Of a DNA stretch of 56,098 nucleotides, positions 3,901 to 46,214 are shown one piece after another. Under the pieces are notes generated by a model. It had not been told where the DNA came from and ran no database searches. It saw only the letters and a program-made list of their open reading frames with translations. The translations under genes were made by a program, and so were the position numbers. Numbering within the stretch: position 1 is the stretch's first letter; every line of letters begins with the position of its first letter. Source of the DNA: Nanobdellota archaeon (lineage in GTDB: Archaea; Nanobdellota; Nanobdellia; Woesearchaeales; CAZZGN01); NCBI GenBank assembly GCA_051819665.1, contig JBNJDG010000003.1:1-56098 (forward strand), given 5' to 3'.

Positions 3901-4030
3901 TTGAACCCCCGTGCCCTGAACGGACAGTAGATCTTTGCAGCCATTGCAAGGACAATGCCTTAGCAATCCTACGGACTCAAAAGCCTTGACTTATGAGATT
4001 ACCGCAATGGCCATACTATGCGACCGCGGC
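3886..4030 (-). tRNA. tRNA with anticodon CAU (elongator Met or Ile2), 145-nt gene. It has a canonical 37/38 intron of about 23 nt (about 3968-3990) and a second insertion of about 47 nt (about 3916-3962) between anticodon stem and T stem.
   Basis: Acceptor GCCGCGG/CCGCGGC, D arm GCAT...TTGC with GG in the loop, anticodon stem GTAAT/ATTGC, loop CTCATAA, T arm GGGGG-TTCAAAT-CCCTC. About 70 extra nt need removing to give a 75-nt tRNA. Confidence 0.7.
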
Positions 4031-6642: not shown

Positions 6643-7789
6643 GAACAAACAGAAGATCATCAAGCATGTTTCTCAGGATGCTTCCAGGATGATGGAAGAC
6701 CTGTATGAATACTACGATGATTTCCAGAAAAAACTGGATCTCTTCAACAGCCTGAAAGAACAGATGATAGATGCGCGGAGCAATCTCAATAAAGGCAACA
6801 GATTCAGTGCCGACAAACCACTGAAGGACCTTAAGGAAGAGTTGAAGAGGATAAAGAGACTTATAAAAGAAGAGAGATCGATCGAAAGAGAAGAACATAA
6901 ATATTCTTACAGACTGCTGGATTTTATCAGATCCGAATTAAAGAAAGGAAAAGAATACGAGGATAACCCTAACTGGGAAAGATACAGGCAATTTCTTACT
7001 GAAGCGAAAGATTTCCTTGAAGGGAATAATGACGGCATATTCCATCTTCTCGCATGCCAGCTGAACCTGCTGAAAGATATCAGGAAAGCCGAGAAGAAAG
7101 GGCAGAGGGAAAAATTAAGAACACTCGAGATAGAGATAATGAGGTTCGGGAAATACCTCGAGAAAGAGGCTGAGATAATAAAACATCCTATGCAGAACCT
7201 GAAAAGGTTCAAGAATGACATGAGGAGCCTCAGGAAGCTGGGCCTAATGTACTCGGAGAGCACCATAAACAAACATAACCTCGGCCTTATCACCACGAGA
7301 TTGAATAATGAAGGCCATCATGCTTATGGGGCTAAAGGGATCGGAGTGATAAAGAAGGATAATGTTGATTTCAGGTTCGTCAAAGGGGAAAAGGAAAAAC
7401 ATGCTGAAGTCGTACAGATGCTTTATGAGGGGATTGCAGGTGCGAAACTTTCAAATGATGTGGCAATAATTTCATACCTCCGGGCATTGACTAAAGAGAA
7501 GATAGCAAAGATAGCAGGCTTTGAGATGCAGCTGGAATTCGATAAGAATGATGAACTGAAGATAATAAATATAGATTATGAGTCCACGATCCTGAAGATA
7601 CAGATAGACAGAGCATTAAGTGGAGAGAGGGTAAATATAGACAGGAGAGATTTTAACAGATTAAACTATTCATTAATGTTCTCCATAAACAAAGAGCTTC
7701 TTGACAAGGATAAGTTCAGATACAATATAGAAAGACACGGCAGTAAGATAAAAGTGAAAGACAGAAGGATATTGCCCTTCATTTCCTGA
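6617..7789 (+). CDS. Hypothetical protein, with an N-terminal coiled-coil-rich half and a C-terminal globular half
   Basis: A 390-aa ORF overlapping the upstream ORF by 26 nt. No motif recognised. Confidence 0.5.
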   Translation: MSLNRILGKNKQKIIKHVSQDASRMMEDLYEYYDDFQKKLDLFNSLKEQMIDARSNLNKGNRFSADKPLKDLKEELKRIKRLIKEERSIEREEHKYSYRLLDFIRSELKKGKEYEDNPNWERYRQFLTEAKDFLEGNNDGIFHLLACQLNLLKDIRKAEKKGQREKLRTLEIEIMRFGKYLEKEAEIIKHPMQNLKRFKNDMRSLRKLGLMYSESTINKHNLGLITTRLNNEGHHAYGAKGIGVIKKDNVDFRFVKGEKEKHAEVVQMLYEGIAGAKLSNDVAIISYLRALTKEKIAKIAGFEMQLEFDKNDELKIINIDYESTILKIQIDRALSGERVNIDRRDFNRLNYSLMFSINKELLDKDKFRYNIERHGSKIKVKDRRILPFIS

Positions 7790-8279
7790 TCTTCCTGGCA
7801 GGCACGCCTGCACATACTGTGCCTTCAGGGATATCCTTGTTCACATAACTGTTCATTGCCACAACAGAATTCTCTCCGATATCAACACCTGACCTTAAGA
7901 GGGAGAAGGCACCGACAACCGAATCCTTACCAAGCTTCACCCTGCCTATCCTGATATAATCATTGGTCATCTCATGAGTAAGGACCTTCACATCAAGGCC
8001 TATTACAACATTATCATCTATCTCTATAAGATCAGGAAAGAAAGGATCGAAGACAGTTCCGGGGGCAATACCCACGTTCTTCCCTATCCTCATACCGGTA
8101 AGCCTGAGAATAGTGTTCTTGGGCTTAAGAGGTAATATCCTCGCAAGATGTATCAGGAAAGAGTTATACATGACCCTGAAAGGGTTCCTGAGCTTATGCC
8201 AGTCATAAAGGACATTATGTTCCTCCTTCCGGCTGATCCTGACATATTTCTTCCTGCCAAGCTTCCGTAAGATATCCAT
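7779..8279 (-). CDS. Left-handed beta-helix (hexapeptide-repeat) acetyltransferase
   Basis: Hexapeptide repeats IGKNVGIAPGTV / IDDNVVIGLDVKV / LGKDSVVGAFSLL / IGENSVVAMNSYV and a C-terminal GVPARKI. Confidence 0.8.
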   Translation of the reverse strand: MDILRKLGRKKYVRISRKEEHNVLYDWHKLRNPFRVMYNSFLIHLARILPLKPKNTILRLTGMRIGKNVGIAPGTVFDPFFPDLIEIDDNVVIGLDVKVLTHEMTNDYIRIGRVKLGKDSVVGAFSLLRSGVDIGENSVVAMNSYVNKDIPEGTVCAGVPARKIRK

Positions 8280-8352: not shown

Positions 8353-9942
8353 ATGAACCTGAAGATAAGAGATCTGGTCAAGCCCCATATAGAGAACCTG
8401 AGTGAGCTTAAGGAGATTCCCGGCTTATGGCACTTCAGGAGAGACATAATAAGAGAGGACAAGAATATACTCAGGAGATTCAGGAAGAGTATAAGGAAGA
8501 TCAAACCGGAGAAGATCCCTAAAGAAAAAAGAGAGGAAGTGGAGAGAGTTCTCAAAGAGATGATTGAGAAGCTCCAGAGCATGCTCAACCAGGAAGCCCA
8601 GAGTCCAGAGCTGTCAAAGGAAGAGGCAGAGGAGATAAACAAGCTGATAAGGATAGCTAACGGTAAGACGAAAGACTTCTCCGCTTTCAGATCAAGGAGA
8701 GATTTCCTGAAGAAGGCAGCCGCGATAAGTGCTGTAGCTGCTGTAGCACCGACAGAGCTGGCAAAAGCATCATCGGAATACAAACTTGATATAAGGGATC
8801 ATTACACAAGTAAGGATACGAAGGTAAGGAGCTCAACAAGCTATATAATCCTGCATACTACGGAAGCAGGGGATAACTCAAGCCTGAATTCGGTGACAAG
8901 GCATGCATCATGCAATTACCTCGTCATGAGTGATGGGCATGTGAAGAGGATCGTCAATATATGGAAACTCGCGAATCATGCCGGAGTGAGCATGTGGAAC
9001 GGGATAACCAACATAAGCGATCATTCTATAGGTATAGAGATAGCCGGGTATCATAATGAACAGCCGTCATGGAGGCAGAAAAGAGCCATCAGGGAACTTC
9101 TCAGACAGCTCCAGAAGAAGTTCAATATAGCTGACAGGGATGTATTGCCACATTCTGCAGTCGCTTATGCACAGAACAAATGGCATCCTTCGCCAGTAAG
9201 GGTGAGAAAGCCCTGTGCCATGCTTTATCATACAGAATCATTGAGGGAGCAGATAGGTCTTAAGGATAAGTACGAACATGATCCCGATATAAACGCAGGT
9301 AGGATTAGCTGGGCAGAGGACAAGACTACGGTAATGGCGAAAGATTACCTTTATGAAACAAATGAAGCAGAAAATAAGGTAGAGGACATAGCGAGGAAAG
9401 GAGGGACTGTCGATAAGGACCACAGCCCTTTCAGGCTTGCAGGGAACGCTTACAACTCGCCTTCAACCATATACATTTTCCCCGACGGAAATAAGAAGAA
9501 AGGAAGCGAGATAAGGGACTGGTCTTCCATGCCAGCAGGGACAAAGATAAAGGTGGACAGTTCCATGCTCGATATCGAGGAGGAGAATGTCGAATTCTAT
9601 AATATCAGCGAAGAGAACCCGACACCTTTCTCAGTAGCAGGGAATGAATACGATAAGAAAACTACAATATACTTCATACCTGTGGATGATGAAGGTACGG
9701 AGAAAGTGATGAGGGGTGACCAGATAGACGAGTTCAACAATATCCCGGCAGGAACAAGAGTTTTAGTCGGATTCACAGACGGAGGCAAAGTAAGCGGGGA
9801 GAGATCAGCTGATGATATCTGCGGTAAGAGATGGGATAACACTGACACTATATACAGGCTTCCCGACGGGGAGATCCTTAACGGCGAACAGATAGAGCAG
9901 AGCAAAATAAAACCCGGCACCTGGGTCTTCTTCAGGAGATAG
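8353..9942 (+). CDS. Secreted N-acetylmuramoyl-L-alanine amidase (Amidase_2/PGRP fold) with three C-terminal SH3-like repeats
   Basis: Twin-arginine-like motif SRRDFLKKAAAISAVAAVA at about aa 113. Amidase_2-like core YIILHTTEAG ... SIGIEIAGYH ... VLPHSAV. Three repeats of about 55 aa (PFRLAGNAY..TIYIFPDG.., PFSVAGNEY..TIYFIPVD.., ..CGKRWDNTDTIYRLPDG..). Confidence 0.7.
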   Translation: MNLKIRDLVKPHIENLSELKEIPGLWHFRRDIIREDKNILRRFRKSIRKIKPEKIPKEKREEVERVLKEMIEKLQSMLNQEAQSPELSKEEAEEINKLIRIANGKTKDFSAFRSRRDFLKKAAAISAVAAVAPTELAKASSEYKLDIRDHYTSKDTKVRSSTSYIILHTTEAGDNSSLNSVTRHASCNYLVMSDGHVKRIVNIWKLANHAGVSMWNGITNISDHSIGIEIAGYHNEQPSWRQKRAIRELLRQLQKKFNIADRDVLPHSAVAYAQNKWHPSPVRVRKPCAMLYHTESLREQIGLKDKYEHDPDINAGRISWAEDKTTVMAKDYLYETNEAENKVEDIARKGGTVDKDHSPFRLAGNAYNSPSTIYIFPDGNKKKGSEIRDWSSMPAGTKIKVDSSMLDIEEENVEFYNISEENPTPFSVAGNEYDKKTTIYFIPVDDEGTEKVMRGDQIDEFNNIPAGTRVLVGFTDGGKVSGERSADDICGKRWDNTDTIYRLPDGEILNGEQIEQSKIKPGTWVFFRR

Positions 9943-13007: not shown

Positions 13008-13412
13008 ATGAACAGATTTATCGAAGTTAGGGGATCGAAGATCCACAATAAGGGCGTATTCGCAAAGAGAGACATTCCTAAAGGTACATCCATCATCGAA
13101 TACAAGGGTGAACTGATAGATAAGGAAGAGGCCGAGAGGAGAGGCCAGAGGGACAGGGAAAACGGAACAGTCTACCTCTTCACACTGAATGACAGATACG
13201 ATATAGACGGCACAGTAGGTGGTAATGAATCAAGGTTCATTAACCATTCCTGCAACCCCAACTGTGAGTCAGTCAATTATGATGATGAGGAAGTCTGGGT
13301 CGAAGCCATAAGGGACATAAAGAAAGGCGAGGAGATCACCTACGATTACTGCCTGGGTGATGATGAGTTCGAGTGCAGATGCGGCAGTGAGAACTGCAAA
13401 GGAAAGTTCTGA
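13008..13412 (+). CDS. SET-domain protein lysine methyltransferase
   Basis: RFINHSCNPNC, EEITYDY and the post-SET CRCGSENCKG motifs. Confidence 0.9.
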   Translation: MNRFIEVRGSKIHNKGVFAKRDIPKGTSIIEYKGELIDKEEAERRGQRDRENGTVYLFTLNDRYDIDGTVGGNESRFINHSCNPNCESVNYDDEEVWVEAIRDIKKGEEITYDYCLGDDEFECRCGSENCKGKF

Positions 13413-14291
13413 TCAGGAGAAGTATTTCCTGTTCAATGCTATAGAATTGATAACGTGATATATATCAAGTATCTGGTCCTGTATCGAAACCAGGCTTGGC
13501 CTTAAGGCCTCATTACCTTCAGGGTGAGAGAAGGACGGTTTCTTAAGGTTCTTGTCCCATGAATTGGTGAATATGATCAGGTTGAGATAATCCACTACCC
13601 TTTTCAGATAATCAGTCACATCCGGCGTTAAAGTGTTTTTCCTGAAGAAATATACCTGGTCGGCTATACGCTCTATCTTCTTCAGTACATCCTTGTAGAA
13701 GAAGATCTCCTCCTCAGATAGGAAACCGTTCTCTTTCATGGCCAGAGTGTTCCTGATACAGGAAAAGCTTATCCTTGTGGAGAGGTGATAGAGCCTGTCG
13801 ACGGATTTCTCTATATCATCCATATCCGAAAGCTCTTCATTTTCCAGAGAGCTCACCATAAGACCCAGTAAGTGAAGCATCCTCCTCATGACGTTCTTAA
13901 CGGTTATGGAGATATCATTGAACAGGAAGGAGATCTCCAGGTTCTTATCATCCTCTTTCACGATGTCATAACCTTCAAGATAACCCAGGATCCTCTTGGC
14001 CTCTTTTATCTTATTGTAATCCATCCTCTTCCAGAAGAAAGAGAGCTTATCGACATTCCTTACATAGCAGAAGACTATGAAGTCTGAGACATTACCTATA
14101 TCATTCAGGTTCACGGAAATCTCCTTGGTCTCATTAGCAGGCCTGGAGAGGCTCACTATGAGATTATTCCTCCTGTCCTCCCTAAGATAGACAGAATCAT
14201 GGCTCTTTATATTGTTCTTATTGACCCAGCTCTTAAGAAGTGATATAGAGTAGCTTCTCTTGCCGACAGATTGTATCTTTCTGGTCTCCAT
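13413..14291 (-). CDS. AbrB/SpoVT-domain + PhoU-domain regulator (archaeal PhoU-like)
   Basis: N-terminal RKIQSVGKRSYSISLLKSWV (AbrB-like swapped hairpin) followed by helical PhoU-like repeats. I chose the start at METRK. The track's 32-aa extension covers the divergent promoter region. Confidence 0.65.
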   Translation of the reverse strand: METRKIQSVGKRSYSISLLKSWVNKNNIKSHDSVYLREDRRNNLIVSLSRPANETKEISVNLNDIGNVSDFIVFCYVRNVDKLSFFWKRMDYNKIKEAKRILGYLEGYDIVKEDDKNLEISFLFNDISITVKNVMRRMLHLLGLMVSSLENEELSDMDDIEKSVDRLYHLSTRISFSCIRNTLAMKENGFLSEEEIFFYKDVLKKIERIADQVYFFRKNTLTPDVTDYLKRVVDYLNLIIFTNSWDKNLKKPSFSHPEGNEALRPSLVSIQDQILDIYHVINSIALNRKYFS

Positions 14292-14372: not shown

Positions 14373-14382
14373 ATTTTTATAC
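14373..14382 (+). promoter_or_regulatory. TATA-like box (ATTTTTATAC) of the hydrogenase operon. The 115-bp divergent AT-rich region 14292-14406 also holds the PhoU-like gene's TATA box.
   Basis: Lies about 25-30 nt upstream of the hydC ATG (14407). The same spacing is seen at many other genes in this window. Confidence 0.4.
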
Positions 14383-14406: not shown

Positions 14407-14853
14407 ATGAGCAAAAAAGAGGTATTGGACAGACACGAGGGCAGAGAGGACGAGCTCATAAACGTCCTCCAGGAGATCCAGGAAAAGGAAGGTTATCTTT
14501 CTCCAAAAACATTGGCCTATGTAAGCAAACATATGGACATCCCTTATGCGAAAGTCTATGGCGTAGCAACTTTCTATAACTTCTTCAAGCTGAAGCCGGG
14601 AGGAAAATACACCATACAGATGTGCAAAGGCACTGCATGTCATGTGAAAGGCTCCTCAGAGCTGTTCGATCATCTCAAGAAAAAACTGGACGTGGAGGAG
14701 AACGGGACGACAGAAGATGGTATCTTCACACTCTCTCCGGTGAATTGTCTCGGGATGTGCTCTCTGGCACCGTGCATGATGATCAATGGTAAAGTCTACT
14801 CAGAGCTTGACAAGGAAAGACTTGACAGCATAATAGATGATATGAGAAAATGA
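14407..14853 (+). CDS. hydC: [FeFe]-hydrogenase complex subunit HydC (NuoE-like thioredoxin-fold [2Fe-2S] protein)
   Basis: Cys ligand pattern CKGTACHVKG ... VNCLGMCSLAPCMMING. Overlaps the next gene by 4 nt. Confidence 0.85.
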   Translation: MSKKEVLDRHEGREDELINVLQEIQEKEGYLSPKTLAYVSKHMDIPYAKVYGVATFYNFFKLKPGGKYTIQMCKGTACHVKGSSELFDHLKKKLDVEENGTTEDGIFTLSPVNCLGMCSLAPCMMINGKVYSELDKERLDSIIDDMRK

Positions 14854-16553
14854 GACTCGAAAAGATAACAGTAGGGATGGGTACATGCGGCATCGCTTCA
14901 GGGGCAGATAAGGTAAAGAAAGAGCTCAAGAGACAGCTCGACATAGATGTCCCCGTGGACAGGGTAGGATGCATAGGTTCATGCTACCTGGAACCGATTG
15001 TAGAACTGAGGTTCGATAAGAGATCATACTTCTTCAGGAATGTAACGAAGGACAAGATACCTGAGATCATAGAGGGAGCCAAGCAACCGAAGAGGATAAA
15101 GAAGAAAGACCTAATAGACTTTGACGATCCTTTCTTCAGCAAACAGACAAAGCTCGTGACAAAGGATATAGGAAGGATAAACCCCGAATCTTACGATGAG
15201 TATGTACAGCACGGAGGCTTTGAAGGGCTTAAGAAAGCGGTAAAGCTGGAGCCTAAAGAGGCAATAGAGAAGATAGGAGAATCAAAGTTAAGAGGCAGAG
15301 GAGGAGCAGGTTTTCCCACTGCAAAGAAATGGAAATTCATCGTGGATGCCCCTTCACCTAAATACCTCATATGTAACGCTGATGAAGGAGACCCTGGTGC
15401 TTTCATGAACAGGACCATGCTGGAATCTGACCCATACAGGGTCCTTGAGGGAATGCTCATAGCTTCATATGCAACTGGCTGTGAGAACGGCATCATATAC
15501 ATAAGGGCAGAATATCCACTTGCCATAAAGACACTCGAGAAAGCCATAAAGACACTGAAGAAAAAGAAACTCTTGGGTAAGAACATCCTCGGAAAGTTCA
15601 ATTTTGACATCAAGATAAAGAAAGGGGCCGGAGCTTTCGTATGCGGTGAGGAAACAGCTTTGATGAAATCCGTGGAAGGCAAGAGAGGAATGCCTCAGAC
15701 AAGGCCGCCCTTCCCGGCACAGAAAGGTGTCTGGGGCTACCCGACAAACATCAACAATGTCGGTACTTTATCCCATGTGGCAACTATATTCAGGGAAGGT
15801 GTAAAGGAATATACAAAGTACGGCACAGAGAGATCCGGCGGCACGAAGATAATCTGCGTCGCAGGAAAAGTAGAACATTCGGGAGTTGTTGAGATACCTT
15901 TCGGCATCAGGCTCAAGGATATCGTTAACAAGATCGCAGTTGCAAAGGATTTCAAGGCATTACAGGCAGGAGGCCCTTCAGGAGGATGCATACCGAAGAG
16001 CAAGATAGACGTCCCTTATGATTACGAGACCATCCAGGAACTCGGTGCTATAGTCGGGAGCGGAGGAATGGTCTTCATGGATTCCAAGAACAACATGGTG
16101 GATGTCGCCAGGTATTTCCTCGAATTCACGAAAGCCGAGAGCTGCGGGAAATGCACGCCATGCAGGGAAGGCACATACAGGCTCCATGAGATGCTGGACA
16201 AGTTCCTAGGTTACAGGGCAGAGGAAGGTGATATAGAATTCACTGAAAAACTATGCAGGTATATCATGGATTCAGCTGTATGCGGGCTGGGACAGACCGC
16301 CCCAAATCCAGTCCTGACAACCATAAGATATTTCAGGAAAGAGTATGAGGGTTACATAATTGATGAGGACGTGAAGACATATTTCATCACTCCGGCCTGC
16401 GTAGGATGCCATAAATGCGCAGAGGTCTGTCCGCAGGGATGTATCTCAGGCAAGAGAGGAAAGAAACATAAGATAGATCAAAGCAAGTGTATCGAATGCG
16501 GGGCATGCTACAACGCCTGCAAGTTCAACGCTATCATCAAGAAGACGGATTAA
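14850..16553 (+). CDS. hydB: [FeFe]-hydrogenase complex subunit HydB (NuoF-like NAD(H)/FMN-binding, multi-FeS)
   Basis: N-terminal 2Fe-2S-like domain (GTCGIASG ... CIGSCYLEP), GRGGAGFPTAKKW, GAGAFVCGEETAL, ESCGKCTPCREG, and two C-terminal ferredoxin motifs (CVGCHKCAEVCP, CIECGACYNAC). Confidence 0.9.
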   Translation: MRLEKITVGMGTCGIASGADKVKKELKRQLDIDVPVDRVGCIGSCYLEPIVELRFDKRSYFFRNVTKDKIPEIIEGAKQPKRIKKKDLIDFDDPFFSKQTKLVTKDIGRINPESYDEYVQHGGFEGLKKAVKLEPKEAIEKIGESKLRGRGGAGFPTAKKWKFIVDAPSPKYLICNADEGDPGAFMNRTMLESDPYRVLEGMLIASYATGCENGIIYIRAEYPLAIKTLEKAIKTLKKKKLLGKNILGKFNFDIKIKKGAGAFVCGEETALMKSVEGKRGMPQTRPPFPAQKGVWGYPTNINNVGTLSHVATIFREGVKEYTKYGTERSGGTKIICVAGKVEHSGVVEIPFGIRLKDIVNKIAVAKDFKALQAGGPSGGCIPKSKIDVPYDYETIQELGAIVGSGGMVFMDSKNNMVDVARYFLEFTKAESCGKCTPCREGTYRLHEMLDKFLGYRAEEGDIEFTEKLCRYIMDSAVCGLGQTAPNPVLTTIRYFRKEYEGYIIDEDVKTYFITPACVGCHKCAEVCPQGCISGKRGKKHKIDQSKCIECGACYNACKFNAIIKKTD

Positions 16554-16554
16554 A

Positions 16555-18276
16555 ATGGTCAATATAAAGATCAACGGAAGGGAAATCGAAGCCAGGGAAG
16601 AGGATACTGTCCTGGATGTAGCTTTCAGGGAAGGGATAGAGATACCGCACCTCTGTTATGAGGAGAAGGTCTCAAAACCGGCAGGATGCAGGATGTGCCT
16701 TGTGGAGATAGAAGGCGCAAGGAACCTCAAACCCGCCTGTGTGACCAAAGTCAGAGAAGGGATGGATATAAGGACCCATTCACAGAGAGTCCTCGATTCA
16801 AGGAAAACCACCCTAAAGCTTTTGATGGCGAATCATCCTTCATGCCTCAAATGCGAAAGGAATCTGGACTGCAAACTGCAGAAATATGCCAACGAGCTCC
16901 TCATAGACGAGAGCCCATACAAGGGGAACAGGGAAAAAGAGATTGATAAGGGACAGGTCCTGAGGAGGGACAATTCACTGTGCATATTATGCGGCCAGTG
17001 CGTGAGGTACTGCAGTGAGGTCCAGAGCGTCCACGCCATAGATTTTGTGGACAGAGGAGTCAATGCGAAAGTCGGATGTGCTAACGACATGCCCATCGAC
17101 GAGAGTGTCTGTGTCGGTTGCGGACAATGTGTACTCCACTGCCCTACCGGCGCACTTGAAGAGACTTACGAGATAGATGAAGTGAAAGACCTTCTCAATG
17201 AATCCATCAAAGGAGACACATATAAGCATGTGGTAGTGCAGGTAGCCCCTTCACTAAGAGTATCGATAGGAGAACTCTTCGGTTACGAACCAGGAGAGGT
17301 CCTCACAGGGAAACTTGTCACGGCATTAAGGAGACTTGGTTTTAATGCTGTATTCGATACAAATTTCGGTGCTGACCTGACTATCGTCGAGGAAGCGACA
17401 GAACTTGTTGAAAGACTGGAAGAAGGGAAAGAGCTGCCCATGTTCACATCGTGCTGCCCGGGTTGGGTTAAGTTCGCAGAAACATTCTATCCGGATCTTA
17501 CCGAGAACCTTTCCACATGCAAGAGCCCGCAGGAGATGCATGCATCCATAACGAAGACCTATTATGCGGAGAAGAAAGGCATAAAACCGGAGAATGTGAA
17601 AGTTGTTGCGGTTATGCCCTGTACAGCGAAGAAATTCGAGAAGACCAGGCACCCCAATAAGAAAGGGTTCTATGACGTGGATCATGTGCTTACCACGAGA
17701 GAATTCGGGAAGCTTTGCAGGTTGTTCAATATAGACCCTAAAGATCTGGAAGATTCAGACTTTGACCCCGCCCTCGGTGAAAGCACAGGAGCAGGAGCAT
17801 TGTTCGGGAGCACAGGCGGAGTGATGGAAGCAGCCCTGAGAACAGCTTATGAGAAAACCACAGGGAAGAGTCTCGAAAAGGTCGAGTTCGATCAGATAAG
17901 AGGATATAAGGGTATCAAGGAAGGCTCTATAATAATCAACGGCAAAGAGATCCGGTTTGCTGTGGCTCATAGCCTCAAGAACGCCAGGAAGCTCGCGGAC
18001 GAGGTTAAAGCAGGGAAATCGAAATATCACTTCATCGAGGTGATGGCATGCCCCGGCGGATGCATAGGAGGAGGAGGACAACCAAGACCCTCTTCTATAA
18101 AGGTTATCAATAAGAGGATAAAAGGAATACAGAACATAGACTCGATGAAGACAATAAGGAGGAGCCACGAGAATCCTTCTGTCAAGAAACTCTATGAAGA
18201 TTTCCTTAAAAAACCCGGCGGGAAAAAATCACATAAACTACTGCATACAGAATACGTGAAAAGAGGAAAATTCTAG
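16555..18276 (+). CDS. hydA: [FeFe]-hydrogenase catalytic subunit HydA (M3-type: 2Fe-2S + His-ligated 4Fe-4S + 2x4Fe-4S + H-cluster domain)
   Basis: All three H-cluster signatures are present: TSCCPGW (17446-17466), MPCTAKKFE (17614-17640), EVMACPGGCIGGGGQP (18037-18084). Accessory cluster motifs are HPSCLKCERNLDC, CILCGQCVRYC and CVGCGQCVLHC. Confidence 0.92.
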   Translation: MVNIKINGREIEAREEDTVLDVAFREGIEIPHLCYEEKVSKPAGCRMCLVEIEGARNLKPACVTKVREGMDIRTHSQRVLDSRKTTLKLLMANHPSCLKCERNLDCKLQKYANELLIDESPYKGNREKEIDKGQVLRRDNSLCILCGQCVRYCSEVQSVHAIDFVDRGVNAKVGCANDMPIDESVCVGCGQCVLHCPTGALEETYEIDEVKDLLNESIKGDTYKHVVVQVAPSLRVSIGELFGYEPGEVLTGKLVTALRRLGFNAVFDTNFGADLTIVEEATELVERLEEGKELPMFTSCCPGWVKFAETFYPDLTENLSTCKSPQEMHASITKTYYAEKKGIKPENVKVVAVMPCTAKKFEKTRHPNKKGFYDVDHVLTTREFGKLCRLFNIDPKDLEDSDFDPALGESTGAGALFGSTGGVMEAALRTAYEKTTGKSLEKVEFDQIRGYKGIKEGSIIINGKEIRFAVAHSLKNARKLADEVKAGKSKYHFIEVMACPGGCIGGGGQPRPSSIKVINKRIKGIQNIDSMKTIRRSHENPSVKKLYEDFLKKPGGKKSHKLLHTEYVKRGKF

Positions 18277-18467
18277 ACCAGGTTAAAACCGTATCTCAAC
18301 ACCAGATAGAAGAGGATAATAGCAACCAACAACATCAGGAAAGTGTTGATTATCCTGCTCCTGTCATCTCCCCCCATCATATCATTCCAGGCATCCCTTG
18401 ATTCCTTGAAGATGACTTCGTCCTTTGTCATCCTGGGATTGCCTCTGGACCTTCTTGAACGTGCCAT
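18273..18467 (-). CDS. Small (64 aa) basic protein with one C-terminal TM helix, hypothetical
   Basis: Internal Met of the 162-aa track ORF. The upstream part of that ORF is antisense to acpS and its promoter. A TTTAAATATT box lies about 30 nt upstream of 18467. Confidence 0.35.
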   Translation of the reverse strand: MARSRRSRGNPRMTKDEVIFKESRDAWNDMMGGDDRSRIINTFLMLLVAIILFYLVLRYGFNLV

Positions 18468-18543: not shown

Positions 18544-18852
18544 ATGGAAACAGGCATAGATCTTGTCAATGTTGACAGGATGAAGAGCATCATTGAAGAT
18601 GAAGAGAAGATGAATAAGATCTTCAACCCGTCCGAGATGAGCGATGATCCAGAGAGGCTTGCAGGTATATTCGCTGCTAAAGAGGCCTTCTTCAAGGCCA
18701 AAGGGATGGATGAGTGGCTAAAGGCGGAAGTGCTAAAGGATGAAGAAGGGAAACCTTCCATCAGATATGAAGGAAAAGACTATAAAGCGAGCATAAGCCA
18801 CGAGGACAAATATGCTATAGCCATGGTGGTTATTCTTGAATACAATAAATGA
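18544..18852 (+). CDS. acpS: Holo-[acyl-carrier-protein] synthase (AcpS-type 4'-phosphopantetheinyl transferase)
   Basis: GIDLVNVDRM start, AAKEAFFKA and ISHEDKYAIAMVVI motifs at 102 aa, typical AcpS length. Overlaps the next gene by 17 nt. Confidence 0.8.
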   Translation: METGIDLVNVDRMKSIIEDEEKMNKIFNPSEMSDDPERLAGIFAAKEAFFKAKGMDEWLKAEVLKDEEGKPSIRYEGKDYKASISHEDKYAIAMVVILEYNK

Positions 18853-21283
18853 TGTAATAAGATCATTCCGTAAGACAGAAAAAGAGGCATGTGTGTATAA
18901 GGACGGCTTCAGGGATTATAGATGGAGTTATAAAGAGTTATACGAAAGGATCCTCAAGACTATACATCTCCTGGATAAGAAAGGTGTGAGGAAAGGGGAC
19001 AAGGTCATGATATGGGCCCCAAACTCACCTGAATGGGTCATCTGTCATCTTGCCATAATCGGGAGAGGTGCAATCTCAGTTCCAGTAGATCTAATGTCCA
19101 ATAATATAGAGAGCCTTGCGGAACATTGCAAGCCCAAGCTCATAATTAAGACTATCTTCAAGAGGAAAGTCGAATACGATGCAGAGACCATCCTTATAGA
19201 GAAGATGGACAAGACCCTCGATAAGAAAGGAAGGATAAGAGAAGCCAGTGAAGAAGATCTAGTGAACATTGTATACACCTCCGGGACTACGGGTGATCCC
19301 AAAGGGGTGAAACTAACGCATAAGAACATCATGTCCAACATAACGAGCGTGACCACCCATATCCATTTCGGCAGGAAGGACAAATTCCTCTCTCTTCTTC
19401 CATTAAGCCATATGTTCGAACAGACCTGCGGTATGATGGGCCCTTTGTATGCCGGATCCTCCATTGTCTATCTCCATTCCCTCAAACCAAGTGCTATATT
19501 CAAGGGCCTTGAGGAAGAGGATATCACAATCATGCCCACGGTACCCAGGATACTACAGGCGCTGAGGAAAGGGATACTCACGAAAGTTAGGAGCACATGG
19601 CTCGGTTATGCTTATTCTCTTCTCTTCCGCGCGAACATACCCATGAAAAGATGGATACATGCAAGGATACACCACAAGATAGGGAATAAGTTCAGGTTCT
19701 TCGTCAGCGGAGGTTCTGCTCTTGATCCGCTTACAGAAAGGTTCTGGAACAATCTCGGTTTCAAAGTGATCCAGGGCTATGGACTTACGGAATGCTCACC
19801 CATCCTCACAGCGAACCTTGAGGAAGACTACAGGTTCCAGAGTGCAGGAAAGCCCATACCAGGCGTAAAGATGAAGACAGAGAACGGGGAAGTGATGGCC
19901 AAAGGAGAGAATATATTCCCCGGTTATTATAAGGACAAGAAACTCACGAACAGTTCATTCTCGAATGGATGGTACAGGACCGGAGATGTGGGGCATTTCA
20001 AAGACGGTTACCTCTATATAAAGAGCAGGAAAAAAGACGTAATCGTGACAAAAGCAGGTGTGAATGTCTACCCCGAGGATATAGAGCCGGTGATAAACTC
20101 TTACGAAGGCATAAAAGAGGCATCGATCATAGGCATGGGAGACAATACAGGGGAGAATGTCCATGCTGTCATAGTTCCTGAAGAGGGATACAATATAGAT
20201 GAGATAGTGGAAGAGGTGAATGAGGAGCTGAACCCGTCACAGAAGATCAGAGATTTTACCATCTGGCCCGAGGATGATCTGCCGAAGACATCCACACTCA
20301 AGGTGAAGAAAGGCCTGCTAAAAGAGAAGATCAAGAAGAAGGATGTCAGGAAAAGGAGAGGTGGGAAATTTTCTAAGATCGTGAAGATGCTGGCTGAGAT
20401 CTCTCCGCTCACCATAGAACAGATAAGACAGGATCATAAGATCTACTCTGACCTGAAGATCGATTCCATAGGAAGGGTAGAGCTTGTATCGAGGATCGAG
20501 AGAGAGTTTAATTTCGATTTCGAGGAAGAGATGATCACTGAGAAGACCACTGTAAATGACCTTGAAGAGATGGTAAAGGAGAAGAAGAAAGGTAAACAGA
20601 AAGTGAAGTATCCCAAATGGACAGAGAAAAGATGGGTCAGGAAACTCAGAAAATGTTTCCTAAAGCATGTGAACCTAAAACTACCACTTAAGTATATGGA
20701 CATCACCGTCAAAGGGAAAGATAACCTGAAGGGTGTCAGAGGGCCTGTGATATTCGTCTCGAACCATCAGAGTTTCTTCGATCATCCTGCTATACTTTCC
20801 TCCCTGCCTGAAAGGTTCAGGTACAACACAAGTGCACCGGCCAAGTGGGAAGTGTTCTTCGAAAGGCCTACGGGAATACTCAATAAGCTCAAGATGAGGT
20901 TCTGGTACATCTATGTGATATCCACAATGGGGCTTTACGTGATGCCCGAACACCACAGCTATAAGAAAAGCCTTGAGTATACAGGAAGGAGGATCAACCA
21001 GGGAGAGAACATACTCATCTTCCCGGAAGGCGCAAGGACCACCACCGATAAGCTCCTTCCTTTCAGGAAAGGTTCTTCTGTGATAATACAGAAACTGAAC
21101 ATCCCCGTAGTTCCGATTGGTATAGACGGACTCGTCGAGATCTTTCCCAGGACCGTAAAGAAACCTATAAAGAAAGGACCTGTGAAGGTGAACATAGGTA
21201 AACCGATAAGGTTCAGGGATGAAAGCCTCAACGAGATAATGAAGACGATAAGGAAAGAGATCGACAGGCTGAGGAAACAGTGA
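18836..21283 (+). CDS. Tri-domain fusion: AMP-dependent acyl ligase (acyl-ACP/CoA synthetase-like) + phosphopantetheine carrier domain + PlsC-type lysophospholipid/glycerol-3-phosphate acyltransferase
   Basis: Adenylation motifs YTSGTTGDPKGV, GYGLTE, YRTGD, KSRKKDVIV. Carrier motif DLKIDSIGRVEL (Ser544, codon 20465-20467). Acyltransferase motifs VSNHQSFFD (HX4D) and IFPEGARTT. Confidence 0.85.
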   Translation: MNTINDVIRSFRKTEKEACVYKDGFRDYRWSYKELYERILKTIHLLDKKGVRKGDKVMIWAPNSPEWVICHLAIIGRGAISVPVDLMSNNIESLAEHCKPKLIIKTIFKRKVEYDAETILIEKMDKTLDKKGRIREASEEDLVNIVYTSGTTGDPKGVKLTHKNIMSNITSVTTHIHFGRKDKFLSLLPLSHMFEQTCGMMGPLYAGSSIVYLHSLKPSAIFKGLEEEDITIMPTVPRILQALRKGILTKVRSTWLGYAYSLLFRANIPMKRWIHARIHHKIGNKFRFFVSGGSALDPLTERFWNNLGFKVIQGYGLTECSPILTANLEEDYRFQSAGKPIPGVKMKTENGEVMAKGENIFPGYYKDKKLTNSSFSNGWYRTGDVGHFKDGYLYIKSRKKDVIVTKAGVNVYPEDIEPVINSYEGIKEASIIGMGDNTGENVHAVIVPEEGYNIDEIVEEVNEELNPSQKIRDFTIWPEDDLPKTSTLKVKKGLLKEKIKKKDVRKRRGGKFSKIVKMLAEISPLTIEQIRQDHKIYSDLKIDSIGRVELVSRIEREFNFDFEEEMITEKTTVNDLEEMVKEKKKGKQKVKYPKWTEKRWVRKLRKCFLKHVNLKLPLKYMDITVKGKDNLKGVRGPVIFVSNHQSFFDHPAILSSLPERFRYNTSAPAKWEVFFERPTGILNKLKMRFWYIYVISTMGLYVMPEHHSYKKSLEYTGRRINQGENILIFPEGARTTTDKLLPFRKGSSVIIQKLNIPVVPIGIDGLVEIFPRTVKKPIKKGPVKVNIGKPIRFRDESLNEIMKTIRKEIDRLRKQ

Positions 21284-21343: not shown

Positions 21344-22363
21344 ATGAACATCATGCAGAAAGCCAGGATCCTAGGAGAGGCAGGAAGATACGACAGCTGC
21401 GGACCAAAGGAATGCGAGGTGAAGGTCAAGAATTCTTTAGGCGGCCTCTACCATGCGGAATCGGAGAACCCCAACTGTATCATGCTCAAGACACTCATGA
21501 GCAATTCATGTGTACATGACTGCAGATATTGTGCGAATTCGGGATGCAGCCAGAGGAAAACATCCTATAAGCCTGAAGAGCTCGACAGGATATTCTATCA
21601 CCTGAAAAAGAAAAGAAAGGTTAACGGCCTCTTCTTAAGCTCGGGTGTAGGCAGTGATCCTGACAGGACAATGGAAGAGATGATCGATGCGGTCAGGAGG
21701 ATAAGGAGATGGTTCAAAGGTTACGTCCATCTCAAGGTATTGCCGGGCACAGACAGGGATCTCATAAAACGTGCATCAGCTCTTGCAGACAGGATGAGCA
21801 TCAATATAGAAGCTCCTGATAAACTGAAGATGCATGAGCTCTCTTCCACCAAGGATTTTAAGACAGACATCCTGAGGAGACAGTCATGGATAAAGAGAAC
21901 AGGGGTCTCGCAGACAAGCCAGATGATAATAAACAATGATTCTTCAGACAAGGACATCATGAAGATGGCCAGATGGCAGTACAATAAGATGAACCTGAGC
22001 AGATTATACTATTCTTCCTTCGTACCGGTGAAAGGGACACCCATGGAGAAAGAACGAGCAGTCAGCAGGACAAGACAGAACAGGCTATACAATATAGATT
22101 TCATGACGAGGAAATATGGTTATGATTTCAGGGAGTTCAACAGTATCATGGACAACGGCATGCTGCCGAGGGAAGACCCTAAGATGGCTCTTGCAAAAAA
22201 AAGGCCGAAAGCAAGCCTTGATTCAGGTTATGAAGAACTGTTGAGAGTTCCGGGGATAGGCCCGAAAACAGCTAAGAGGATAGTGGAGGAGAGGCCAGCA
22301 AGAATATACGGGAAAGCCTCTGCCTTCATCAGGGGACAGCAGAGTAACCTGAACGAATTCTGA
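21344..22363 (+). CDS. Radical SAM protein with a C-terminal helix-hairpin-helix (the 'putative DNA modification/repair radical SAM' family)
   Basis: N-terminal AGRYDSCGP, the CRYCANSGC region, and a C-terminal LLRVPGIGPKTAKRIV HhH. Confidence 0.65.
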   Translation: MNIMQKARILGEAGRYDSCGPKECEVKVKNSLGGLYHAESENPNCIMLKTLMSNSCVHDCRYCANSGCSQRKTSYKPEELDRIFYHLKKKRKVNGLFLSSGVGSDPDRTMEEMIDAVRRIRRWFKGYVHLKVLPGTDRDLIKRASALADRMSINIEAPDKLKMHELSSTKDFKTDILRRQSWIKRTGVSQTSQMIINNDSSDKDIMKMARWQYNKMNLSRLYYSSFVPVKGTPMEKERAVSRTRQNRLYNIDFMTRKYGYDFREFNSIMDNGMLPREDPKMALAKKRPKASLDSGYEELLRVPGIGPKTAKRIVEERPARIYGKASAFIRGQQSNLNEF

Positions 22364-22409: not shown

Positions 22410-23729
22410 ATGATAATACATATCTTCAGGAGAGACTTGAGGATTTACGATAACACAAGCCTCAGGAAAGCTCTGGAAAAGGATTCTGTTATCCCTTGTT
22501 TCATACTCGATCCGGGGCAGAGGGATCATGACTTCTTCTCTGATAATGCTTTCAGTTTCATGATCGACTCATTGGAAGGTCTTGACAACTCGCTTAAGAG
22601 AAAGAAGAGCAGGCTACATCTCTTCAGCGGCAGAGCCGATGAGGTGGTTGAAGATATAATTAAGAAGACAGGCGCAGAAGCTGTATATGTAAATAAGGAT
22701 TATACCCCCTTCTCCATAAAGAGAGACAAAGAGATAAAGGAAAAATGTAGGGAAGCAGGTGTTGAATTTAAAGTGCATGATGATTGCCTTCTCAATAAAC
22801 CGGAAGACACACTGAAGAAAGACGGTAGCCCTTATACCGTATTCACTCCATTCTACAAGAAAGCCAAGGATATCGAAGTAAGGGAGCCAGCAGATGTTAG
22901 AGGAAATCTGTCTTATATGAAAGGTCTTGGTAATTCTAAGTTCCCGAAGATAAAGAAGAACAAATTTTCTGCAGAAGGGGGGAGAGAAAAAGGCCTTGAG
23001 CTGCTTAAGAATATCGAAGGATACAAGAATTACCGTTACATCAGAGATATTCCTGCAAGGGATCATACCACAAGATTAGCACCCCATCTGAAATTCGGTA
23101 CTGTCTCAGCGAGGGAGGTCTATCATTTCCTCAGGGATAATCTTGATGAGGAAAGCCTGATAAGGCAGCTTTACTGGAGGGATTTCTATACACAGATCGC
23201 TTATTTCTTCCCACATGTATTCGGGGATCCTTTCAGGAAAAAATACAGGAACGTCAGATGGGATTATGACAAGAAAAAATTCAGGCAGTGGTGCGAAGGG
23301 AAGACAGGCTTCCCTATAGTTGATGCAGGGATGAGACAGCTTAACAGGACAGGTTATATGCATAACAGGGTGAGGATGATCGTCGCTTCTTTCCTCACTA
23401 AACATCTGCATATAGACTGGAGATGGGGCGAGAAGTATTTCGCGCAGAAACTCACAGATTATGACCCTGCTGTGAACAACGGGAGCTGGCAGTGGGCCGC
23501 ATCTACAGGATGTGACGCGCAGCCTTTCTTCAGAGTATTCAATCCATGGAGACAGCAGTTAAGGTTCGATAAGGATTGTGAGTACATTAAGAGATGGGTT
23601 CCCGAACTTTCTGATAAGAATAAGACTGAGATCAACAATCCGGAAAGTTCTTTCGATGATTATCCAAGACCTATAGTGGATCATAAGACCGAGAGGGAAG
23701 AGGCCATAGCAAGGTTTAAGGAGATCTAG
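22410..23729 (+). CDS. phr: Deoxyribodipyrimidine photolyase / cryptochrome family flavoprotein
   Basis: LYWRDFY, TGFPIVDAGMRQLNRTGYMHNRVRMIVASFL and NNGSWQWAASTG motifs. Confidence 0.9.
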   Translation: MIIHIFRRDLRIYDNTSLRKALEKDSVIPCFILDPGQRDHDFFSDNAFSFMIDSLEGLDNSLKRKKSRLHLFSGRADEVVEDIIKKTGAEAVYVNKDYTPFSIKRDKEIKEKCREAGVEFKVHDDCLLNKPEDTLKKDGSPYTVFTPFYKKAKDIEVREPADVRGNLSYMKGLGNSKFPKIKKNKFSAEGGREKGLELLKNIEGYKNYRYIRDIPARDHTTRLAPHLKFGTVSAREVYHFLRDNLDEESLIRQLYWRDFYTQIAYFFPHVFGDPFRKKYRNVRWDYDKKKFRQWCEGKTGFPIVDAGMRQLNRTGYMHNRVRMIVASFLTKHLHIDWRWGEKYFAQKLTDYDPAVNNGSWQWAASTGCDAQPFFRVFNPWRQQLRFDKDCEYIKRWVPELSDKNKTEINNPESSFDDYPRPIVDHKTEREEAIARFKEI

Positions 23730-23764: not shown

Positions 23765-24003
23765 GAAAGTGGGGACACTGACACAAATTATTACGCAAAT
23801 TTGGAATGCAAGGTGGGTTTCCTTCACTTCGTTCAGTCAAGCCCACTCAAGACAAGTTGTGCTTTATGCACCACCAAAGTGTCAACTGATTTTCAGTTGC
23901 GCTGATTTGGAATGCGCTCCTGGGGAGTGCCCCATAGGGGCAAGGTGGGTTTCCTTCACTTCGTTCAGTCAAGCCCACAGTCATGAAGAAACTGGGGACA
24001 CTG
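23765..24003 (-). repeat. Non-coding module of about 225 bp immediately 3' of tRNA-Trp. It is bounded by direct copies of the tRNA 3' end (TGGGGACACTG at 23770-23780 and 23993-24003, plus strand) and contains two 39-bp repeats (23808-23846, 23940-23978) and two copies of ATTTGGAATGC.
   Basis: Exact repeats read directly from the sequence. The region holds only spurious repeat-derived ORFs. Confidence 0.85.
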
Positions 24004-24113
24004 GGATTCGAACCCAGATCCGCTGGTATCTCCAAGGCTAGATGTCATCGGCTTACGCCTCTTCGCTCCAATTACTGGAGCCAGCTATACTAGCCGGATT
24101 ATACTATGTCCCC
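23993..24113 (-). tRNA. tRNA-Trp (anticodon CCA), 121-nt gene with a 47-nt intron at the canonical 37/38 position (about 24028-24074)
   Basis: Acceptor GGGGACA/TGTCCCC, D stem GTAT/GTAT (wobble) with GG in the loop, anticodon stem GCTGG/CCAGC, loop CTCCAG^intron^A, T arm CTGGG-TTCGAAT-CCCAG. The exon CTCCA pairs with intron TGGAG, giving a bulge-helix-bulge geometry. Confidence 0.85.
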
Positions 24114-26771: not shown

Positions 26772-27260
26772 TTAACGTGCAGATAATTCCTTATCAACCA
26801 TCAAGAGACCATTGGAAGAATCCTTGACCCTCTTCAGCTTCTTGACGATCTCATCAACACTCGATTCCTCCTCTACCTGCTCATCTATGAACCAGTTAAG
26901 GAAAGACCTTGTCGCAAACTCTTCCTCTTCCTCTGCAAGTTTGGCGAGATCATTGATCATCTTAGTCACTTTCTGCTCATGCGCATAAGCTTCCTCGAAT
27001 GCTTCCAGAGCCGAAGACCAGGAGGACTTGGGATTCTCTATCGCTTCAAGATTCACCCTTCCTCCTCTCTCTACGATATGATCAAATAGCTTCATCGCAT
27101 GCTCTTTCTCTTCCTCTGCCTGTTTCCTCATCCAGCTTGCAGCTCCGGGGAGGTCTATATCCTCCATGTAAGCCGACATAGCCAGATAAAGATAGCCGGA
27201 GTAAAGTTCCTTGTTTATCTGTCCGTTCAATGCTTTCTGCATCTTCTCTTTTATCTCCAT
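26772..27260 (-). CDS. ftn: Ferritin (non-haem, ferroxidase di-iron centre)
   Basis: LNGQINKELYSGYLYLAMSAY, EEEKEHAMKL and YAHEQKVT motifs. Confidence 0.88.
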   Translation of the reverse strand: MEIKEKMQKALNGQINKELYSGYLYLAMSAYMEDIDLPGAASWMRKQAEEEKEHAMKLFDHIVERGGRVNLEAIENPKSSWSSALEAFEEAYAHEQKVTKMINDLAKLAEEEEEFATRSFLNWFIDEQVEEESSVDEIVKKLKRVKDSSNGLLMVDKELSAR

Positions 27261-27270
27261 TCATATCACC

Positions 27271-27882
27271 TTATCTGTTCGTGTAAAGATAGTTTACCTG
27301 ATCCCAGTTGATCACATTAAAAAATGCTTCGATGTAGTCAGGCCTTTTATTCCTGTATTTCAGGTAGTAAGCATGCTCCCAGACATCAATCGTCAGGAGA
27401 GGCTTGAAACCATGGGAGATAGGTGTCTCCTGATTTGAGGTGGACATTATCTTAAGGTTTCCCTCCTTGTCTTTCACAAGCCATGCCCAGCCGCTCCCGA
27501 ACTGTCCTTTGGCAGCCTCGGAGAACTTCTGCCTGAAAGCATCATAGCCCCCAAATTCTTTCTTTATAGCTTCCGCTATCGGCCCTTCAAATGCAGTATC
27601 CTTCTTCAATACCTTCCAGAAGAGCTTATGATTCACGAAGCCGCCCCCGTGATCCCTGATCTTTTTCCTGAGCTCTTCAGGAGCATCTTCAACCCCGGCC
27701 ACTATCTCCTCGGCAGATTGTCCTTCGAACTCTTCCCTGCCCTTTATCGCCACGTTGAATTTATCAAGATAAGCCTGGTGATGCTTATCATGATGGAGCT
27801 TCATCGTCTCCTCATCGATATATGGCTCTAAAGCGTCATAATCGTATCCTAAATCCGGCAATTCAAATTGTACCATCTTCAT
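27271..27882 (-). CDS. sod: Fe/Mn superoxide dismutase
   Basis: LPDLGYDYDALEPYID, HHDKHHQAY and DVWEHAYYLKY motifs. Confidence 0.93.
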   Translation of the reverse strand: MKMVQFELPDLGYDYDALEPYIDEETMKLHHDKHHQAYLDKFNVAIKGREEFEGQSAEEIVAGVEDAPEELRKKIRDHGGGFVNHKLFWKVLKKDTAFEGPIAEAIKKEFGGYDAFRQKFSEAAKGQFGSGWAWLVKDKEGNLKIMSTSNQETPISHGFKPLLTIDVWEHAYYLKYRNKRPDYIEAFFNVINWDQVNYLYTNR

Positions 27883-27887
27883 TCACC

Positions 27888-28457: not shown

Positions 28458-28462
28458 TCACC

Positions 28463-33674: not shown

Positions 33675-33775
33675 ATTTAAATATGTCGGGTATGCCCTAT
33701 AAAATATATTCTTTAAGTTGTTTACCGAAATAGTTATAAGACAGAATTCTTTACCAGAGCTGATAAGGGACAACA

Positions 33776-44585: not shown

Positions 44586-44695
44586 AAGGGGATTAACAGC
44601 TGTTTATATAGTTTATTATTATCCTTTGCAAAGGAGTGTTATATTTAAAAGCCAATCCGCAAACTATAAAAAACATCTTTCCCGACGATAGGCCC

Positions 44696-46213: not shown

Positions 46214-46214
46214 A

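Follow-up and report, generated by a model that had tools for sequence, protein, structure and literature searches.

Can a trimeric [FeFe] hydrogenase still merge electrons from NADH and reduced ferredoxin into H2 (confurcation) once its flavoprotein subunit has lost the metal site of its hinge? This question is raised by the genes hydC, hydB and hydA (hydCBA) on contig JBNJDG010000003.1 of a Nanobdellota archaeon (assembly GCA_051819665.1), of which the whole stretch of 56,098 nucleotides (nt) was analysed and is called the window here. The analysis favours, at a probability of about 60%, a functional trimeric group A3 hydrogenase of the bifurcating Bfu type, which would confurcate NADH and ferredoxin electrons to H2 with a simplified hinge, the operon having been held, as part of the same explanation, in the Woesearchaeota lineage for a long time. 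Enzymes of this class have been described in archaea before. Most [FeFe] hydrogenases of Woesearchaeota subgroups B, E, G, H and J were reported to be trimeric, with one catalytic, one nuoF-like and one nuoE-like gene, and were assigned to group A3 with conserved P1–P3 motifs (Huang et al. 2021, PMC8421398), while among the archaeal [FeFe] hydrogenases, documented in nine archaeal phyla, the A3 type had the widest distribution, occurring in at least six DPANN phyla (Greening et al. 2024, PMC11216029). The initial annotation of this DNA had described [FeFe] hydrogenases as long held to be absent from archaea and noticed there only very recently; the operon is real, but its novelty was overrated, since the trimeric A3 enzymes of Woesearchaeota were published in 2021. 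It is one more diverged member of that class, and what appears to be new in it is the HydB variant.

[quoted passage not shown] The ligands of this site, B2, are C438, C476 (Thr in FeFe enzymes), H525, C531 and C536 in the A. mobile enzyme, where the site was first modelled as a [2Fe-2S] cluster (Schut et al. 2022, PMC9304861). In a HMMER alignment, the corresponding positions of the window HydB are N415, L453 and Y502, with the last two cysteines deleted, as an 8-residue deletion takes out the Cys-x4-Cys segment. Independently of any alignment, HydB residues 479–516 and 381–431 contain neither cysteine nor histidine. In a HydB family alignment of 61 sequences, four B2 columns hold C, H, C and C with a conservation of 90% or more. 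An AlphaFold2 model of HydB (mean predicted local distance difference test score, pLDDT, 89.9; predicted template modelling score, pTM, 0.85) dips in confidence only at the hinge (pLDDT 66, residues 501–510).

The loss is shared by the relatives of the window enzyme. The nearest HydA relatives (P0002–P0014, 57–71% identity) belong to a clade with 100/100 neighbour-joining bootstrap support, and the contigs of seven HydA relatives, from seven different samples or assemblies, were examined (L161–L167). All seven HydB partners of this clade lack the B2 site: the hinge is short in five of them (the window and L161–L164), and in L165 and L167 a long, acidic linker of low complexity without Cys or His takes its place. 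Outside the clade, a canonical B2 site is kept in archaeal HydBs from Altiarchaeales (P0123), Nanoarchaeota (P0124) and another Woesearchaeota contig (L168). It was also found in 117 of the best 120 HydB homologues, Altiarchaeales and Nanoarchaeota proteins included, the three without it being the window protein, its 71% relative P0122 and the outlier P0130. Among the best 150 matches of an exhaustive search through 1.84 billion representative proteins, 58 have the domain holding the two C-terminal [4Fe-4S] clusters (B3/B4), 55 of them with a full B2 site and three with none. Four HydB-like proteins with the B3/B4 domain and without any B2 ligand were noted (P0130, P0243, P0247 and P0345), of which P0243 probably represents the L162/L163/L165 type. 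A degenerate DNA pattern for the B2-less hinge proved unspecific, yielding ferredoxin-like motifs and, among the matches listed, no HydB or HydA above 50% identity by tblastn. The combination of absent B2 and retained B3/B4 is not mentioned in Greening et al. 2024 or in a 2024 survey of BfuB subtypes in Hydrogenedentota; the words 'zinc' and 'hinge' do not occur in the former (PMC11216029), and Huang et al. 2021 (PMC8421398) make no mention of a HydB zinc or B2 site. The clade-wide B2 loss, with every ligand substituted or deleted, thus appears to be undescribed.

The other sites of the bifurcating family are retained. HydB matched PF01512, PF10589 and Fer4 and contains the flavin mononucleotide (FMN) motif GRGGAGFPT (149–157), CNADEGDPG (175–183), GAGAFVCGEETAL (259–271) and the N3/B1 [4Fe-4S] ligands C432, C435, C438 and C478. 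HydC matched PF01257 (E = 8e-53) and TIGR01958 (151.8 bits, cut-off 142.4), carries the C1 [2Fe-2S] ligands C73, C78, C114 and C118, and has its best solved relatives in C subunits of bifurcating enzymes (7t2r_C, 9bov_C, 7p5h_C and 8a6t_C). The flavobicluster sites of the Bfu family (B1, FMN and C1) are all present, and every NuoF, ferredoxin-type and NuoE motif listed for HydB and HydC by the initial annotation was found. The B3/B4 cysteines are invariant in the 61-sequence alignment, and their block is modelled at pLDDT 73–93. Two pocket motifs specific to the Bfu family were also detected, A184-F185-M186 (AFM) and G374-G375-P376-S377-G378 (GGPSG), the latter conserved across the same alignment. 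Both line the Bfu FMN/NAD pocket (AFM being A202/M204 in A. mobile; PMC9304861, PMC12018979), and the GGPSG loop is described as conserved in all bifurcating enzymes (PMC12018979). B1, C1, both B3/B4 motifs and a PG[A/S]FM pocket are present in each of the seven clade members inspected, whose H-cluster motifs are identical; such retention at a HydA identity of only 57–71% points to purifying selection.

Full-length comparisons place HydB among bifurcating subunits as well. It matched NfnB of C. saccharolyticus with 636 bits, NfnB of T. sibiricus with 632, T. maritima HydB with 549 and T. kivui HydB with 528, and the best Foldseek matches of its model were all bifurcating B subunits (TMq 0.84–0.87). 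Compared with the BfuB domain set of Schut et al. 2022, which comprises Nuo51 FMN-binding, SLBB, Nuo51 4Fe-4S and 4Fe-4S ferredoxin-type domains next to a NuoE-like BfuC, only the SLBB domain (PF10531) gave no match at E ≤ 0.001, and the model still superposes full-length on BfuB structures.

The catalytic subunit is intact. HydA matched NF040763, 'NADH-dependent [FeFe] hydrogenase, group A6', with 799.5 bits (cut-off 765; NCBIfam) and TIGR02512 with 500.4 bits (cut-off 405.95), and its closest solved relative is HydA1 of the electron-bifurcating T. kivui enzyme (E = 4e-179). The A3 gene organisation, hydA beside NuoF-like and NuoE-like genes, is present in the contiguous hydC, hydB and hydA; together with a template modelling score of about 0.86 between HydB and bifurcating B subunits, this upholds the group A3 architecture originally proposed, here of the Bfu type. 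With the group A signatures TSCCPxW (L1), MPCxxKxxE (L2) and ExMACxxGCxxGGGQP (L3), the H-cluster motifs were located at 298–304 (TSCCPGW), 354–362 (MPCTAKKFE) and 495–510 (EVMACPGGCIGGGGQP), and the cysteine ligands are C301, C356, C499 and C503. The CpI proton-transfer residues C299, E279, E282, R286 and S319 correspond, in a gapless alignment, to HydA C300, E280, E283, R287 and S320. The N-terminal region, which aligns to CpI and T. kivui HydA1, holds the ligands of FS2 (C34, C45, C48 and C62) and FS4C (H94, C97, C100 and C106) and the accessory [4Fe-4S] motifs CILCGQCVRYC (143–153) and CVGCGQCVLHC (186–196). The initial annotation had recognised the three signatures and the full M3 accessory set, and had allowed for a degenerate or sensory paralogue that has lost an H-cluster cysteine or a proton-transfer residue; by alignment to CpI none is lost.

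Whether this subunit is matured in its host is a separate matter. None of HydE, HydF and HydG was found in the window, in which all open reading frames (ORFs) of at least 300 aa were scanned, in agreement with what had first been reported. The question of maturation raised at that time is a proper one, although already a published puzzle: only five of 130 archaeal genomes with [FeFe] hydrogenases have the full HydEFG set, and an alternative maturation route has been proposed (Greening et al. 2024, PMC11216029). Two radical-SAM genes (21344–22363 and 48137–49126) were considered as cryptic HydE or HydG and rejected, as the best match is a DNA-repair-linked radical SAM and no maturase model matched. 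A genome without maturases might hold HydA as an inactive apo-protein, a sensor or a repurposed protein, as the missing genes and the maturase-less state of most archaeal [FeFe] genomes would allow. We see only a slim chance of this. The H-cluster ligands and proton-transfer residues are conserved in a clade diverged to 57% identity; the Pfam scan revealed no PAS or other sensory domain in HydA, whose proton-transfer C300 is present and which matches group A and not the sensory group C; archaeal [FeFe] hydrogenases from maturase-less genomes are active once matured (PMC11216029); and the maturase search covered only 56 kb of the genome. In the favoured explanation, the H-cluster may be matured without HydEFG.

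For the bifurcating family, electron bifurcation has been placed at B1-FMN-C1 as the minimal site, with B3/B4 serving ferredoxin, while B2 holds a redox-inactive Zn that is 'not required for BF' (PMC11829005, PMC12018979). Under this model, the window enzyme has everything that is required. NADH would be oxidised at the FMN of HydB, and reduced ferredoxin would feed its electrons in through the C-terminal B3/B4 clusters. The flavobicluster of HydB B1, FMN and HydC C1 would merge both streams and pass the electrons through FS2, FS4C, FS4B and FS4A of HydA to the H-cluster, where protons would be reduced to H2, a confurcation that is reversible in principle. In the absence of B2, the ferredoxin domain would be tethered by a short metal-free linker. 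Confurcation is favoured on these grounds; without it, nothing would account for the retention of the ferredoxin domain.

A second site of HydB bears on this proposal. In its N-terminal thioredoxin-like domain, the B5 site shows a three-cysteine pattern common to NfnB of C. saccharolyticus and T. sibiricus, in which B5 holds Zn (3 Cys + 1 Glu) and not [2Fe-2S] (PMC11829005, PMC12018979). Within the clade, L162, L163, L165 and L167 carry the four-cysteine B5 type. E25 was considered as the fourth ligand of the window site and dropped, as the invariant glutamate of the family alignment is E48, which is a candidate ligand.

Several points weigh against a confurcating enzyme. The loss of the B2 histidine together with all cysteine ligands could mark a loss of bifurcation, since this histidine is present in 1550 of 1558 BfuB, missing in only eight, and absent from non-bifurcating homologues (Schut et al. 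2022, PMC9304861). The window B5 site is probably not a [2Fe-2S] cluster, and T. kivui HydABC without the B5 [2Fe-2S] domain no longer bifurcates, according to work cited in PMC12018979. Glycolytic and pyruvate:ferredoxin oxidoreductase genes, like the maturases, are absent from the window, and the trees are neighbour-joining only. One rival is an active hydrogenase that no longer bifurcates or confurcates: without the zinc hinge and with a non-cluster B5, it would be a simple NADH- or ferredoxin-dependent enzyme evolving H2 only at low H2 partial pressure, functioning like S. wolfei Hyd1ABC while the ferredoxin domain is kept. The clade-wide loss of all B2 ligands and the T. kivui result fit such an enzyme, as does the frequent association of DPANN archaea with H2-consuming partners. 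A clearly different type is present in Woesearchaeota as well: in Woesearchaeota GCA_019323195.1 (L169), HydB (6887–7993) has 368 aa, lacks the N-terminal and ferredoxin domains and shows a complex-I-type PGTFK pocket, so that its HydABC is probably a S. wolfei-like non-bifurcating NADH-dependent enzyme. The L169 hyd operon adjoins A-type ATP synthase genes.

The known non-bifurcating homologues, however, are without B3/B4 and have the PGTFK-type pocket, as does L169, whereas the window HydB has retained B3/B4, AFM and GGPSG, evidently under selection. Bifurcation persists in Nfn enzymes that hold Zn at B2 as well as at B5, so neither site is a redox requirement. Moreover, genes for a four-subunit pyruvate:ferredoxin oxidoreductase and a small ferredoxin directly precede hydCBA in two clade members, L165 (2947–6279) and L167 (23–2345), linking the enzyme to reduced ferredoxin. 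A non-bifurcating enzyme is for these reasons considered unlikely, though it is the chief rival.

The direction of the reaction can be weighed with the same evidence. The operon might serve mainly for H2 uptake, a bifurcating enzyme turning the H2 of neighbours into NADH and reduced ferredoxin for a host-dependent archaeon. HydABC enzymes are reversible, according to the Moorella and Acetobacterium literature cited in PMC11216029, and nothing in the window fixes the direction. Against this, A3 enzymes occur in Woesearchaeota with carbohydrate fermentation pathways (PMC8421398, PMC11216029), the pyruvate:ferredoxin oxidoreductase genes stand beside the operon in L165 and L167, and an H2-dependent energy metabolism is not evident in the 56 kb. 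Uptake as the main role is judged improbable. Fermentative disposal of electrons as H2, which the initial annotation had suggested, is reasonable and agrees with the favoured confurcation; it is not a new idea, as an H2-evolving fermentation had been proposed by Huang et al. 2021.

If confurcation does persist, this lineage of Woesearchaeota HydABC would be a natural B2 knockout, probably also without a redox-active B5, that still confurcates; we hold this stronger form tentatively, at somewhat less than even odds. It would imply that the B1-FMN-C1 and B3/B4 core is sufficient in a hydrogenase and not only in Nfn enzymes, and that a flexible tether is all the ferredoxin domain needs, short as in the window or long and acidic as in L165 and L167. 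B2, initially regarded as a hallmark of bifurcation, is now considered structural; the clade removes it completely, keeps everything else and solves the tethering in two ways, offering a natural experiment on whether hydrogenases can confurcate without the zinc hinge and a redox-active B5.

The coordinates of the genes, domains and promoter element are shown in Table 1. All three ORFs are intact, with a 4-nt overlap (ATGA) between hydC and hydB and a 1-nt gap between hydB and hydA, exactly the tight packing first described. The hydC-hydB-hydA order was also observed in L161–L165, L167 and L168. Upstream, an archaeal-style TATA box had been proposed, and an element of this kind was indeed read from the sequence, in a 115-nt AT-rich intergenic region common to hydC and a divergent gene. 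The element, as TTTTTATA, TATTTAAA or TATATATA, recurs 22–25 nt upstream of hydC in L161, L162, L163 and L164, and L165, L168 and L169 show similar TATA-like elements in a comparable place. A distance of 25 nt from the hydC ATG fits a leaderless or near-leaderless archaeal transcript, and the conserved position of the element suggests a leaderless one, so the operon would be transcribed from an archaeal TATA promoter, probably as leaderless mRNA. A 292-aa protein is encoded by the divergent gene (13413–14291, minus strand); neither Pfam nor NCBIfam matched it, the GTDB scan gave no relatives, and the relatives' operons have no counterpart beside them. Convergent to hydA, and overlapping its stop codon by 4 nt, lies a possible 64-aa ORF (18273–18467, minus strand) with a C-terminal transmembrane helix and no family match.

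Table 1. Positions of the hydCBA genes, their protein domains and the promoter element in the window.
Feature	Position (nt)	Strand	Description
TATA-box-like element	14374–14381	+	TTTTTATA; ends 25 nt before the hydC ATG; read from sequence
hydC	14407–14853	+	148 aa; NuoE-like thioredoxin-fold [2Fe-2S] subunit carrying the C1 cluster
hydB	14850–16553	+	567 aa; NuoF-like flavoprotein: FMN/NAD(H) site, B1 [4Fe-4S], N-terminal thioredoxin-like and C-terminal 2x[4Fe-4S] domains
HydB N-terminal thioredoxin-like domain (B5 site)	14850–15149	+	3-Cys type: C13, C41, C45 and invariant E48
HydB hinge, residues 499–516	16344–16397	+	YEGYIIDEDVKTYFITPA; shortened; B2 zinc-site ligands absent
HydB C-terminal ferredoxin-like domain, B3/B4 [4Fe-4S]	16398–16550	+	CVGCHKCAEVC 517–527, CIECGACYNAC 547–557; presumed ferredoxin-interaction module
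hydA	16555–18276	+	573 aa; group A [FeFe] hydrogenase catalytic subunit
HydA F-domain, residues 1–223	16555–17223	+	FS2 [2Fe-2S], His-ligated FS4C, FS4A/FS4B [4Fe-4S]; M3 architecture; PF13510, PF10588, Fer4
HydA H-domain, residues 224–573	17224–18276	+	H-cluster site and fused small-subunit segment; PF02906 E = 6e-98, PF02256 E = 1e-23

The host is a Woesearchaeota (DPANN) archaeon. The window encodes PCNA (34126–34875), Hef (40646–42832, minus strand), archaeal PheRS alpha and beta (44636–47840), a SecY with a Sec61 plug domain, an EMC3/DUF106 protein and a uS5-uL30-uL15-SecY cluster, and the best SecY matches (62–70% identity) are almost all from Woesearchaeota or Nanoarchaeota metagenome-assembled genomes (MAGs). 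Two over-long tRNA genes of 145 nt (3886–4030) and 121 nt (23993–24113), the latter with a 47-nt insertion in the anticodon loop, were found by Rfam and missed by ARAGORN. The archaeal nature of the contig, deduced originally from several of these genes and from intron-containing tRNAs, is thereby supported.

As the sequence is metagenomic and the immediate flanking genes have no informative relatives, a bacterial hydCBA fragment might have been mis-joined into an archaeal contig. Scans with the left- and right-neighbour proteins returned nothing, or only bacterial matches of at most 30%, and did not place the flanks taxonomically; tblastn of 25 window flank proteins against L161–L169 gave no matches, showing that the cassette is conserved and its neighbourhood is not. 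Chimerism of the operon region is nonetheless very unlikely, to the point of being almost negligible. In GC content, GC content at third codon positions and codon usage, hydCBA lies within the spread of the other 45 window genes and is indistinguishable from them, its pooled codon-usage distance being 0.57 against 0.42–0.85 for neighbouring triples of similar size. It is located between the two intron-containing tRNAs. The same gene order is found on six of the seven relatives' contigs, which are independent of one another (the seventh, L166, begins at hydA), within the clade of 100% support, and the TATA element is conserved in position. Archaeal genes occur on these contigs too, namely archaellin (L163), an archaeal Hel308-type helicase domain (L161) and Cdc6/Orc1 beside hydA (L166), and L165 is a named Woesearchaeota MAG. 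The nearest bacterial HydA, moreover, is only about 54% identical.

The same data bear on the origin of the operon. In the neighbour-joining tree of HydA, the sister of the window clade consists of other Woesearchaeota HydAs and the bacterial sequences fall outside, the nearest of them being from Atribacterota (about 53–54% identity). A GTDB scan with exact HydA peptide patterns returned only bacterial loci of about 50% identity, missed the real relatives and is uninformative on taxonomic spread. Acquisition from Bacteria, followed by placement under an archaeal promoter, as had been suggested at the outset, is consistent with the tree and with the inference of Greening et al. 2024 (PMC11216029) that group A enzymes were acquired laterally from bacteria several times. 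The transfer would not be recent, given a fully ameliorated codon usage and an identity of only about 54% to the nearest bacterial HydA.

Other genes of the window were noted in passing. Directly downstream of hydA (18544–21283, plus strand) are a holo-ACP synthase (PF01648) and an 815-aa fusion of an acyl-AMP ligase, a phosphopantetheine-binding acyl carrier protein (ACP) domain and a PlsC-type acyltransferase. The fusion resembles bacterial Aas, the acyl-ACP–phospholipid O-acyltransferase, below curated cut-offs, and represents, in a DPANN archaeon, a fatty-acyl lipid-remodelling gene of bacterial style. A bacterial cell-wall hydrolase domain, N-acetylmuramoyl-L-alanine amidase (PF01510), is carried by a 529-aa protein (8353–9942, plus strand) and might point to interaction with bacteria. 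An oxidative-stress cluster of ferritin, Fe/Mn superoxide dismutase and two peroxiredoxins (26772–29125, minus strand), with a DNA photolyase (22410–23729) near it, is of note beside an O2-sensitive [FeFe] hydrogenase. Further genes include a methyl-accepting chemotaxis protein with HAMP and MCP signalling domains (29717–30913, plus strand), again in a DPANN genome, and a 503-aa protein (32265–33776, minus strand) in which an MtrA-like domain is fused to an archaeal-type thymidylate synthase and a pterin-binding DUF4346 and which scored 170.4 bits against TIGR03283, just below the cut-off of 174.55. A toxin-antitoxin-like nucleotidyltransferase/HEPN gene pair (458–1451, plus strand) and a 134-aa SET-domain protein (13008–13412, plus strand) were also detected.

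Among known systems, the A3 enzymes of Woesearchaeota and other DPANN archaea (PMC8421398, PMC11216029) agree with the window enzyme in phylum, in the HydA, NuoF-like and NuoE-like organisation, in the H-cluster motifs and in the usual absence of HydEFG, and they too were earlier read as confurcating fermentative hydrogenases. The nearest protein is only 71% identical to that of the window, and the HydBs checked outside the clade keep B2. The HydABC enzymes of T. kivui, A. woodii and T. maritima (PDB 8a6t, 7q4v/8a5e and 7p5h) share the domain order of HydB and HydC and the FMN, B1, B3/B4 and C1 sites, at a HydB identity of 43–46%. With T. kivui HydA1, the window HydA aligns over its full length, being similar in length and having the M3 set, while the extra C-terminal domain of T. 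maritima HydA is absent from it. The likeness to Thermotoga and Acetobacterium drawn by the initial annotation fails at HydB: theirs hold Zn at B2 (3 Cys + 1 His) and [2Fe-2S] at B5, whereas the window HydB has neither ligand set, lacking the zinc hinge and carrying a B5 of the 3-Cys Nfn type. The best matches of HydB in both sequence and fold are NfnB of C. saccharolyticus and Thermococcus sibiricus (PDB 9bov/9bp5 and 9n5u; 49–52% identity, TMq 0.86), which share the 3-Cys N-terminal pattern, AFM and GGPSG; they keep the B2 zinc site (3 Cys + 1 His), and the A subunit of these enzymes is an NADPH-oxidising NfnA and not a hydrogenase. S. wolfei Hyd1ABC, as described in PMC9304861 and PMC11406978, is likewise trimeric with a NuoF-like subunit lacking the B2 ligands, but it is non-bifurcating and without B3/B4 and other accessory sites, whereas the window HydB keeps B3/B4 and the Bfu pocket motifs. 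Judged by its ligand positions, the window enzyme departs from every structurally characterised relative, combining the absence of B2 with a 3-Cys (+Glu) B5 of the type that binds Zn in Nfn.

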